Assembly: GCF_029227855.1 (NCBI RefSeq)
Contig: NZ_CP074357.1
Length of the DNA stretch: 64,000 nucleotides
Direction: 5' to 3' (one strand)
DNA from: Escherichia coli
GTDB taxonomy: Bacteria > Pseudomonadota > Gammaproteobacteria > Enterobacterales > Enterobacteriaceae
Shown: piece after piece, positions 49,101 to 52,100 of the stretch
How the letters are laid out: every line of letters begins with the position of its first letter
How positions within the stretch are numbered: position 1 is the stretch's first letter
Made by a program: the position numbers

Positions 49101-52100
49101 GTTCCTGAAGGACGAACTACGTACAACAGGTTTCTGTCATTTTCTAATATGCTATGTTTCAAAATCGTTATATCTATCTCATTATCATGCAGCAAATAGC
49201 ATGACGATGGTTCATTGACGATGCGCGATTTTATAACAGCAGCAAATTTATTAAAAACTTCGTTAATTTGAAAATTCATTAAAATGCTCTCCGATGTAAA
49301 ACGACGAGCATCACCATAACGGTAATACTCCCGTTATGGGTTTTAATAGTTTATGGAATAACCATGTCATACAACCGACCATAGCCAGTAGTACCGCACA
49401 TTTATTTAACTGAGCAAGCATCTCAGCCGTGAAAAGACCTTAAAGGCAGGTAATTATCACGAAGGAAAGCGGTTATCTTATCAATACAATTTTAAAATAT
49501 AATATTGATAAGATAACCCCCCCCGCAAAAAGCGGGGGAGTTATCGTTGTTACAGCTGATTAAGACATTCAGGAGCCCAGTGAATCGGGAATCCATCCTG
49601 CCCTGTTAACTGGAGAACATCGTTCCAGTCGATACCCTTTTTCCCATCAGGAATATCTTGTGCTGGTTCGAAGACTTCAATTGTCAGCTTTGATGCGGGA
49701 TATCGTTTAGCCAAAAACTCAACCATGCGGCTTTGAAGTCGCTGAGCAGCTTCAATACCGGCACGAGTGCCTTGTGAGTTAGCAATATCCTTATCCGCCC
49801 AGATATAAAAGTTTATAGATTTTACATCCGGCGGAGGCAGTAAAAAATCAGGAACAGTAACGTTTTCAAGGCACCATGCGGAGCTGGCTGCCCAGCATGG
49901 TGTTGAAGTCGCTTCTACAACAGAAAGCGCGTTCTCGATCCCTTCAGCCACTCCCAGTGTCCAGGTCGAACTACCTGAATCATAGTGAGGGTCAAACAAC
50001 TGAATTGAGCCACCTGTCATATCGGCAGGAGGCTTCATCATCAGCTTTGGATTTTCTACAGGTGCCTTATCACCATTTTTGTCTACGTATGTTCTATGAA
50101 TAGTCAGAGGCCGACCTCGGGTGTCACGATAGATCGCAATCATTCCCGGATAGATAATCGATTTCTGCTTATCTTTATCCCAATAGTAGATCCGGTTATT
50201 AAAGCCTAAATCCTTTGGTAAGTGACTCAGTAAGCGGGAGATCCCACGATTACGGAGGTACAAAGCAACAGGAGTATTAGGCTTGATTTCACCGGTATAG
50301 TGATACATCACATCAAGTTTTCGCATTCGCTTTGCCACTTCCTCTCGGTCAAGAGTTTCTGTGGCACGAACTGCTGATTTATAGCGTCGTTCATTTTCAA
50401 TGTCGGCGTCAGTTAACGGAGCATGCAGATCCATCCCGAAAAAATCTGAGAGAATCTTTTTGCAAGTCTGCGTTTTACTTAATTCATAATATTTCGCCAG
50501 AACATCAATTCCGTCGCAAAACTCATTTACCGGAAAGTCATTATGGATCGCACATCCGGTATAAAGGTCTTTTTGTCGGAAACGAAACTTCGATTTCCCT
50601 GCGCCAGTAAACGGGCAAGGAACCTGGCTCGGGGCTTTTGCACAAGCGTCTTTGAAAGCAGGTATTCTTTCGAATATATACTTCCAGCCAGACACTTCAG
50701 CAATTCGAGCATGAACGAGTTTAATAAAGTGTTCAGATACTTCCTGTGGATTACGACGAAGAGCCGGGGATGCATAAGTCATGATGATCTCTCTTATCTG
50801 GCATTGTGAGTTTCTCAATGCCTTCTGCGGTGCAGAAGACAGGGAGAAACCCACAACGCAGAATTTAAGAAAGAGGGCCCGGGGGCCCTCAACATTTATG
50901 CTTCAGTCGTGAAGCCATTATTCTCAAGACGCTGTATGTAGTTATCTACAAGTAACGCAGCCTGCTGGCTATTACCCTCCGCTATAGTGACTTCGCGGAA
51001 GATTCTTTCCTGAGGGCTATCATTGCTTATAACTTCACCAACACGTCCGAAAATACGGACTTTATGCATCGCACCGACTTTTTCATGTTCTACACGGTAA
51101 GTTTTTATCTGAGTCATATTTTGCTCCTTATTCCTTCATGGAGCAAAAAGACCCACCGGGGCCTTTTGCCCCGATTGGGTAGAGTTTATTAAGAAAGTAT
51201 TTGATGAACTAGCTTACTGACTTCAATAGACAATAAAGAAGTATCATCAACTGTTACGAAAGTGTCCGTTTCAAAACCAATTATTTCATCAGTCTTAATA
51301 CCAACACCAACGATTTCTATTCCATTACATTTAGCCTTTTCCATAACTTCGCCGATAGTAAATTCCGATTTATTCGGATAACCATCAGTTATAAGAAAAA
51401 TTATTTTCCTATCGAATTGGCTGTCAAGTAACAGATCAACAGCTGCCATTAAAGCCGATCCCGTAGGGGTATAATAACCCTTACATCCAAGAGTGAATTT
51501 CGATAGAGATTCCTCAACGCTTTGATCAAACGTTTTGATAATCTCAAATTCACTTTCCTTGAAGGGAAAGACTATATTGGAGACATGCATTTTTGACAAA
51601 CTTTCAGCGGCCATCGATAAAGCAAGATCTGACTTAATGGCATGAATATATCTTTCATCATTAGCCATTGACGCTGAAATATCACGAACTAATACGAGGC
51701 CAACATGCCCTCTATTTTTAGATTCGCTTTGAGCTCTGAAGACATCACGAACTCCCATTGGTGACAGAATTAATCGATTTCCATCGAAGGTAATTCCACG
51801 CTCATGAGTTTTGTTTCGGCCACGCATTTTAACCTGCTGTAAAACAGACAAGTCGCTACCGATTGAATGACTCAGAGACAAAGCCTCATTGTAAACATTC
51901 AAATCGATAAGGAGATCAGGGATATCCCATTCAGAAGCACCGAATTCGGCTTTCACGTCATCGGATACTTTTGATGCAATACCTTCAATCTCTTTAGCCA
52001 AAGCATCGTGATAATCTTCGCTATCCTCATCACTGCCAAGAAAGGCATCCAACAAATCTGCCAGTATCTCCCATTGAGCCGATGAAAAGTTACTTTCATC

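Follow-up and report, generated by a model that had tools for sequence, protein, structure and literature searches.

A palindrome conserved by pairing next to a toprim gene of IncHI plasmids: a candidate element of a leaky tandem-hairpin transcription stop

INTRODUCTION

Tandem-hairpin Rho-independent terminators that act as partial attenuators inside operons are the described systems closest to the locus considered here, a perfect palindrome (P) in the spacer following a primase-like toprim gene of Escherichia coli (RefSeq assembly GCF_029227855.1, contig NZ_CP074357.1). The analyzed stretch of 64,000 nucleotides, hereafter the window, is IncHI2 plasmid backbone. As in such terminators, a GC-rich stem with a U-tract (hairpin T1) lies a few nucleotides past a stop codon, further hairpins with U-rich tails follow it, and microarray signals from an IncHI1 plasmid suggest a several-fold step-down in expression with both sides co-regulated. 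Unlike them, P is AU-rich and long (16 to 21 bp) with a large loop, and the U-tract of T1 doubles as its 5' arm.

Two other groups of elements invite comparison. Repetitive extragenic palindromic sequences and bacterial interspersed mosaic elements (REP/BIME) were reportedly described, by Newbury and colleagues in 1987 and Espeli and colleagues in 2001, as mRNA 3'-end stabilizers and transcription attenuators. P resembles them as a stable palindrome between cistrons of one operon, where differing upstream and downstream mRNA abundance is expected, but REP/BIME form a dispersed multicopy sequence family, whereas P is single-copy in the window and conserved in structure only. Plasmid single-strand initiation (ssi) sites include ssiA and ssiB of RSF1010, the Frpo element of F, and G4-type signals. 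Like P, they are hairpin DNA beside a primase-type gene with a conserved single-stranded flank; the P locus, however, is without an origin or leading-region context, and its flanks show hallmarks of RNA, namely G·U pairs on the coding strand and sequestration of a Shine-Dalgarno (SD) sequence. Frpo rebuilds a −35/−10 promoter, for which the 16-bp stem of P is too short.

Among Rfam families the nearest is RF03070, the ssNA-helicase motif, and the likeness concerns not P but a hairpin farther along the spacer (H7, 49314 to 49339), which is near-identical in stem and loop to consensus positions 3 to 29. The match of 23.4 bits lies below the gathering score of 41.5, covers only part of the model, and leaves P uncovered; at the gathering score, RF03070 was not found in the window or in related loci.

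RESULTS

A 16-bp palindrome downstream of the toprim gene

The sequence from 49471 to 49539 reads GGTTATCTTATCAATA-caattttaaaatataa-TATTGATAAGATAACC, one extra C, and then CCCCCGC-AAAAA-GCGGGGG, so that the perfect inverted repeat with 16-bp arms and the adjacent GC hairpin are present just as the original prediction described them. P itself occupies 49471 to 49518 and is not assigned to a strand. Its arms, GGTTATCTTATCAATA and TATTGATAAGATAACC, enclose an A/T-rich loop that had been called AT-only; the length of 16 nt is right, but one C is present (15/16 A/T). A repeat search extends the dyad to 23-nt arms with 87% complementarity and a 2-nt gap, almost the whole 48 bp being palindromic.

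Among inverted repeats of the window that pair perfectly around a loop of ≤40 nt, P is the longest. Over 200 shuffles that preserved dinucleotide content, the longest arms had a mean of 10.5 ± 1.0 bp and never exceeded 15; with 16 bp reached in none of them, a chance origin is excluded. The 52-nt P segment folds at z = −8 to −9 as RNA or DNA and on either strand, and the arm sequence has no second copy in the window. Other long perfect inverted repeats lie at 11010 to 11057 (14-bp arms, 20-nt loop) and 29480 to 29516 (15-bp arms, 7-nt loop).

The local genes are all on the minus strand, and the features below are given on that strand unless noted otherwise. In the order of transcription, the toprim stop codon (49552 to 49550) is followed by an 11-nt gap, T1, P, about 190 nt, and the AUG (49277 to 49279) of a gene for a 173-amino-acid (aa) protein, the spacer between the two genes being ∼270 nt. 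The element had been correctly located 3' of the toprim gene and 5' of the next gene, but its GC hairpin was placed after the palindrome, and in transcription this hairpin comes first.

Signs of selection on the pairing of P

Orthologous spacers were drawn from genomes and metagenomes and represent IncHI2 sublineages, IncHI1, IncHI3, and eight more distant lineages. Across the twelve lineages compared, toprim identity ranges from 53 to 100% (from 79% down to 53% in the eight distant ones). A metagenome scan with a 25-base H7/H8 pattern returned 14 loci, 13 of them duplicates of known lineages and one, L144, new (L numbers are our labels for lineages). A contig scan with GATAACNCCC-N{55,85}-TTYCTTCG was too unspecific and was discarded, the matches listed being chance occurrences in unrelated phyla. 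MAFFT with RNAalifold on the full spacer failed to align P, the arm sequences having diverged, and we therefore relied on per-lineage folding, a chimera test, and a separate alignment of the arms.

All 12 lineages have a spacer of ∼270 nt in which T1 is directly followed by an AT-rich palindrome. The arms read CTTATCAATA in IncHI2, CTCTTTAG in IncHI1 and IncHI3, and CTTTTTAATA, CTATTAAA, TTTTTAATTAA, or CTTTTTATATTAAA in the remaining lineages, which makes at least six distinct arm sequences, every one of them complementary to its own partner. Geometry differs between orthologous loci as well, with arms of 11 to 21 bp and loops of 3 to 23 nt, and the hairpin has a z-score of −2.4 to −9.7 in 10 of the 12 lineages.

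Native arm pairs fold at −15.0 kcal/mol, compared with −7.7 kcal/mol for chimeras joining the 5' half from one lineage to the 3' half from another, and none of 20,000 partner permutations was as good as the native pairing. In the aligned arms, 94.4% of cells are standard pairs, against 37 to 54% with the partner slid by one to three columns. Both partners have changed in four pairs of the aligned stem, which has a covariation score of 0.228 versus 0.124 for shuffled alignments (0 of 500 shuffles score as high). The two IncHI2 sublineages differ at three positions in the 276-nt spacer, all three within hairpin loops. Because complementarity is kept while arm sequence changes, selection on P acts on pairing rather than on sequence, a conservation pattern that fits a nucleic-acid hairpin and argues against an operator of fixed geometry. 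The expectation of a selected, functional element beside a primase-like gene is borne out by pairing kept in 12 lineages and by the similarity of the toprim protein to PHROG 510, "DNA primase" (E = 1.4e-27), and the proposed check among syntenic plasmids found symmetry kept throughout these lineages rather than poorly conserved.

T1 as the probable intrinsic terminator of the toprim gene

The GC hairpin at 49520 to 49538, whose core at 49520 to 49526 pairs with 49532 to 49538, has the features of a standard intrinsic terminator serving toprim. T1 as a whole spans 49512 to 49545, with the core CUCCCCCGC-UUUUU-GCGGGGGGG (49518 to 49540) on a lower stem GAUAAC/GUUAUC. Its stem has nine pairs, eight of them G-C, around a 5-nt loop, and begins 11 nt past the toprim TAA (49550 to 49552). 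In all five lineages scanned (the window, L005, L015, L016, and L020), T1 scored as terminator-like on the coding strand and its tail has at least five T in eight positions. Of the U-tracts, that of IncHI2 (GUUAUCUUAU) is the weakest, and those of L015 and L016 (CUUUUUAA and UUUUUAAU) are canonical; the stem is retained in the 12 lineages with U·G wobbles on the sense strand.

T1 and P are physically interlocked. The T-run right after the T1 stem, which is the U-tract of the terminator, is the 5' arm of P in most lineages, and P additionally takes GUUAUC from the lower stem in the type found in IncHI1, IncHI2, and IncHI3; in the window, the coding-strand 5' arm of P (49503 to 49518) overlaps the T1 lower stem and the U-tract position. 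Reading on the plus strand, the original prediction missed that the GC hairpin is the probable toprim terminator and that in most lineages the first arm on the coding strand is its U-tract.

A drop in microarray signal at the corresponding junction of R27

A microarray study of the IncHI1 plasmid R27 reports strong induction at 25°C for the nine genes from R0204 to R0002 (PMC7366339). R27 numbering places R0001 at 407 to 784 and R0002 at 843 to 1718, with R0003 being trhI, and a backward count through nine annotated genes, passing the record origin, gives R0204 as toprim and R0203 as a 174-aa gene. At 25°C, the wild type has values of 403 for R0204 and 49 for R0203, and the derepressed htdA mutant 15,984 and 5,679 (PMC7366339, Tables S3 and S4), from different probes that are not strictly comparable. 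Genes R0198 to R0203, downstream of the junction, are derepressed ∼100-fold alongside the upstream genes (PMC7366339), and this joint derepression indicates read-through. These data suggest that the toprim/R0203 junction is a 3- to 8-fold step-down within one regulon, as expected of a leaky terminator with read-through. The toprim gene is the last of an upstream co-regulated block and the 173-aa gene the first of a lower-expressed downstream block.

The remainder of the spacer is structured

The spacer contains about eight hairpins, T1, P, and H3 to H8, most of which are found by RNAalifold, with compensatory changes and many coding-strand G·U pairs. Folding of the IncHI2 spacer gives −99.8 kcal/mol (z = −8.1) for sense RNA and −82.0 for the antisense strand, and the T1-P-H3 trio is predicted in 12 of 12 lineages. 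Right after P comes a U-rich tail, the pyrimidine-rich single-stranded linker GCUUUCCUU (49462 to 49470), kept as (C)CG-YUUUYCUU in every lineage, and in most of them four to six of the 8 nt behind P are U; the linker does not recur elsewhere in the window above chance. H3 (49428 to 49461) has a conserved base, CGUG...CACG (UGUG/CACA in L015), with a variable interior and, in several lineages, a U-run behind it, and it scored as terminator-like in IncHI1 (ACCTGttattCAGGT-TTTTTTTT) and L020.

H4 (49409 to 49427) is a CTGAG-N7-CTCAG dyad whose pairs never vary and which is unique in the window. It lies within a block of ∼40 nt that is invariant across 10 lineages, in which the flanking genes are only 72 to 80% identical. 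The invariant block at 49398 to 49430, ACGGCTGAGATGCTTGCTCAGTT(A/T)AATAAATGTGCGGTA, includes the dyad and is free of covariation; this invariance without covariation suggests that the block is read sequence-specifically, and it would be a better operator candidate than P. Compensatory changes reappear in H5 (49366 to 49397) and H6 (49353 to 49365), where RNAalifold pairs 213-235, 214-234, 218-231, 220-229, and 241-254 have changed on both sides.

Closest to the downstream gene is a two-hairpin module (49283 to 49339) formed by H7, CCAUAACGG-GAGUAUUA-CCGUUAUGG, and H8 (49283 to 49312), which sequesters the SD sequence GGAGAG (49287 to 49292) before the AUG; the module is also present in short-spacer Klebsiella/IncHI5 lineages. 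We note an alternative pairing at 49306 to 49330, in which the loop and 3' arm of H7 (GAGUAUUACC) pair with the 5' arm of H8 (GGUGAUGCUC) ahead of a U-run. It excludes H7 and H8 and scored as terminator-like, as it did at L015:3959-3987 and L020:3960-3988, and it may constitute an attenuator-type switch just before the 173-aa gene.

An Rfam search of the spacer, the window, and nine related loci, under E-value and gathering thresholds, found no family at threshold, and its microRNA matches are generic artifacts of long hairpins. Promoter scans across lineages turned up no sense-strand sigma-70 promoter in the spacer whose position is conserved, and likenesses to sigma-54, Fur-box, IHF, and Ter sites were dismissed on comparison by eye with consensus sequences. 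A hydrophobic open reading frame of 36 codons, MLAQLNKCAVLLAMVGCMTWLFHKLLKPITGVLPLW (MLAQLNKC..., 36 aa; 49422 to 49312), overlaps H4 to H7 and is probably not coding, being truncated in L013 and L019, devoid of a start codon in L015, and frame-shifted in L014.

Related hairpin modules at other junctions of the array

The toprim gene is part of a co-directional array running from the Tra2 genes trhN and trhI through genes for an AAA ATPase, a DUF3150 protein, a VWA protein, and a 73-aa protein to toprim, several unknown genes, and tus, in a region that is essentially identical in >1,100 large enterobacterial plasmids typed IncHI2A / MOBH / MPF_F. The same two-hairpin module recurs in at least 11 intercistronic gaps of this array (window 44630 to 57369), namely 57313-57369, 56875-56934, 54413-54475, 53208-53284, 51118-51188, 49283-49345, 48680-48757, 47731-47800, 46727-46794, 45740-45805, and 44630-44800. 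It comprises an (A)ACCC...GGG hairpin at the stop codon and then a hairpin whose 5' arm pairs with the SD sequence, often with a U-run in the loop, and in 13 of the 15 gaps between trhI and a 318-aa gene the sense strand gives the better RNA fold. By their sequences, the modules, which occupy almost all gene junctions of the array, look like a repeated family of intercistronic regulatory structures, more unusual than P itself, of which the RF03070 motif may be one instance. Palindromes at 46746 to 46784 and 56882 to 56908 share the core GGGATTTCTCC / GGAGAAATCCC, each being the first module hairpin of a different junction.

The T1-P layout has a counterpart at the other end of the toprim gene. 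The 73-aa/toprim junction (50783 to 50895) carries a GC hairpin, GAGGGCCCccGGGCCCUC, with its UUUCUU, and then a ∼28-bp hairpin that includes three G·U pairs on the sense strand (dG = −62.7, z = −10.6), across which the U-tract is able to pair with the toprim SD sequence. This structure indicates that toprim starts at the ATG at 50782 and not at the GTG at 50854. The 394-nt gap at 58243 to 58636, between trhI and the orthologue of R27 R0002, with which the block induced at 25°C begins, is also strongly structured (dG = −121.6, z = −6.6) and is likely the promoter and leader of that block.

The genes flanking the spacer

The toprim gene (49550 to 50782), the orthologue of R27 R0204, encodes a primase-like protein of 410 aa with Pfam domains DUF7146 and Toprim_3; no sequence match to this protein was found in the PDB. 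The 173-aa gene (48758 to 49279), the orthologue of R27 R0203, is of unknown function, and searches of Pfam, NCBIfam, and PHROG with its product gave no match. The protein has a confident AlphaFold model (pLDDT 88.9, pTM 0.82), for which a Foldseek comparison with PDB folds gave a best E value of 0.94, which is not significant, and no DNA-binding fold was recognized.

Insertion sequences (IS) interrupt both genes in sequenced plasmids. IS2 lies inside the toprim gene in CP122839.1 (L157), and the 173-aa gene of NZ_CP055552.1 (L158) has IS903B after ∼10 codons (window ∼49250). Both genes appear dispensable for maintenance, since the plasmids bearing these insertions are still typed as conjugative by MOB-suite. 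Neither insertion breaks P, and both plasmids are uninformative as natural knockouts.

DISCUSSION

We propose, with a probability of roughly 0.55, that P is a sense-transcript hairpin and belongs to a leaky transcription stop, built of tandem hairpins, within a long polycistronic operon of IncHI plasmids. We infer that P acts in RNA rather than DNA from its surroundings, because the neighboring hairpins favor the sense strand and the last of them sequesters the SD sequence; its role could be in termination, stability, or processing. In this proposal, RNA polymerase leaving the toprim gene would meet T1, with its GC-rich stem and U-rich tract, and most transcripts would stop there. In those that read through, the A-rich distal arm would be made and would pair with the U-rich tract to form P, which, closed by G-C pairs and followed by its conserved U-rich tail, could serve as a second, weaker back-up terminator. 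Alternatively or in addition, this stable hairpin may protect or mark the RNA, either by blocking 3' exonucleases or by offering a processing site of the RNase III type. H3, with its U-run, would provide a third stop, and the net outcome would be several-fold lower expression downstream of the toprim block with both sides under the same regulator.

Several observations weigh against this proposal. RNA folding of P favors the sense strand in six lineages and the antisense strand in four, with two tied, so that a strand is not assignable, and as DNA both strands fold equally well; wobble cells on the sense strand number 8, compared with 2 to 3 C·A cells, and P of two lineages has a sense-strand C·A mismatch. 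By itself, P departs from the consensus for intrinsic terminators, with an AU-rich stem and a 16-nt loop, and the scan did not score it, only the U-rich tail being present. The T1 decision itself is beyond the influence of P, because terminated transcripts never contain the distal arm. The expression evidence comes from IncHI1 and not IncHI2, and the assignment of R0204 to toprim rests on counting genes. Finally, P is missing from Klebsiella/IncHI5-like plasmids, in which the spacer is only 70 nt and carries H7 and H8, and from two Photorhabdus loci; since these do without it, the distal module that includes P is a clade-specific addition and dispensable.

It is possible, if doubtful, that P is instead a scaffold within a structured 5' leader or riboregulator of ∼270 nt (an attenuator, a thermosensor, or a protein-binding RNA) for the block beginning with the 173-aa gene. 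The whole spacer being a chain of covarying hairpins would suit such a role, as would the mutually exclusive pairings of the proximal module (H7 and H8 or the terminator-like alternative), the 40-nt block invariant between lineages, and the temperature control of IncHI gene expression (PMC7366339). A leader needs its own start, however, and no conserved promoter was found upstream of P; P directly adjoins T1 and shares its U-tract, and Klebsiella/IncHI5 lineages have the downstream gene and the proximal module without P.

The adjacent primase-like gene raises the question of whether P, with or without the neighboring hairpins, is a single-stranded DNA initiation or loading site for conjugative or lagging-strand synthesis, possibly for the DUF7146-Toprim protein. 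We consider this, the leading idea of the original prediction, unlikely. P does fold well as DNA on either strand, its combination with the conserved single-stranded flank GCTTTCCTT recalls the architecture of RSF1010 ssiA/ssiB, and the Rfam motif to which the proximal hairpin is similar bears the name ssNA, marking uncertainty between RNA and single-stranded DNA. Co-induction of the block with transfer genes at 25°C (PMC7366339) would also be in keeping with it. The locus nonetheless lies away from oriT, a rep gene, and iterons, neither a skew switch nor DnaA boxes were found there, T1 has the features of a textbook terminator, the coding-strand G·U pairs and SD-sequestering hairpin around P point to RNA, and plasmids with IS2 in the toprim gene are still typed as conjugative. 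The suggestion of a secondary origin finds no support: cumulative GC skew is monotonic through the site with no inflection, no rep gene or iterons were found in the neighborhood of P, and DnaA boxes occur at chance level, with none in the spacer.

A broader and equally improbable extension is that the spacer hairpins and the modules at more than 10 other junctions together form an undescribed single-stranded nucleic-acid system punctuating a 16-kb conjugation-co-induced IncHI array. They could be DNA priming or loading signals for the DUF7146-Toprim protein in the recipient cell, or coordinated temperature-responsive RNA switches that set expression gene by gene.

Much less credible is the proposal that P is a double-stranded operator of a dimeric or tetrameric plasmid regulator, or an H-NS/Hha nucleation site, serving a downstream promoter. 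Its dyad symmetry is perfect, it is AT-rich with TpA steps, and control by H-NS/Hha and HtdA/TrhRY operates in IncHI plasmids (PMC7366339). But arm spacing (3 to 23 nt), arm length (11 to 21 bp), and arm sequence (at least six versions) vary between orthologues, which neither a fixed protein geometry nor a conserved host protein would permit, and the dimeric-repressor operator of the original prediction fares no better. The arm is unique in the window, no promoter overlapping or adjoining P was found, and the 173-aa neighbor has no recognizable DNA-binding fold; if any spacer dyad is an operator, the invariant CTGAG-N7-CTCAG at 49409 to 49427 is the better candidate. Least credible of all is an antisense small RNA that includes P, starts at a weak opposite-strand promoter (TAGCCA-18-TAAACT), and ends at reversed T1: an 8/12 promoter-like match is positionally conserved on the antisense strand in seven lineages and T1 scored as terminator-like on the plus strand too, but the match is weak, it is absent in IncHI2, and the −11 A, an essential base, is missing from the IncHI2 and IncHI3 versions; T1 has only a poor U-tract when read in reverse, and the regional structure favors the sense strand.

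The preferred reading, a leaky tandem-hairpin stop, makes this locus ordinary in kind, an intercistronic hairpin added to an intrinsic terminator, although the signs of compensatory evolution are unusually clear. It is modestly new in detail, as an unannotated structured spacer of 270 nt in a clinically important plasmid family, and it corrects a tempting misreading of a palindrome beside a primase as an origin or operator. Its practical value hinges on experiments. Multidrug resistance in Salmonella, E. coli, and Enterobacter has major carriers in the IncHI1 and IncHI2 plasmids, whose transfer is temperature controlled and most of whose backbone genes are without known function. A conserved, structured spacer at the point where an operon co-induced with conjugation steps down would offer a handle on relative gene dosage in these plasmids.

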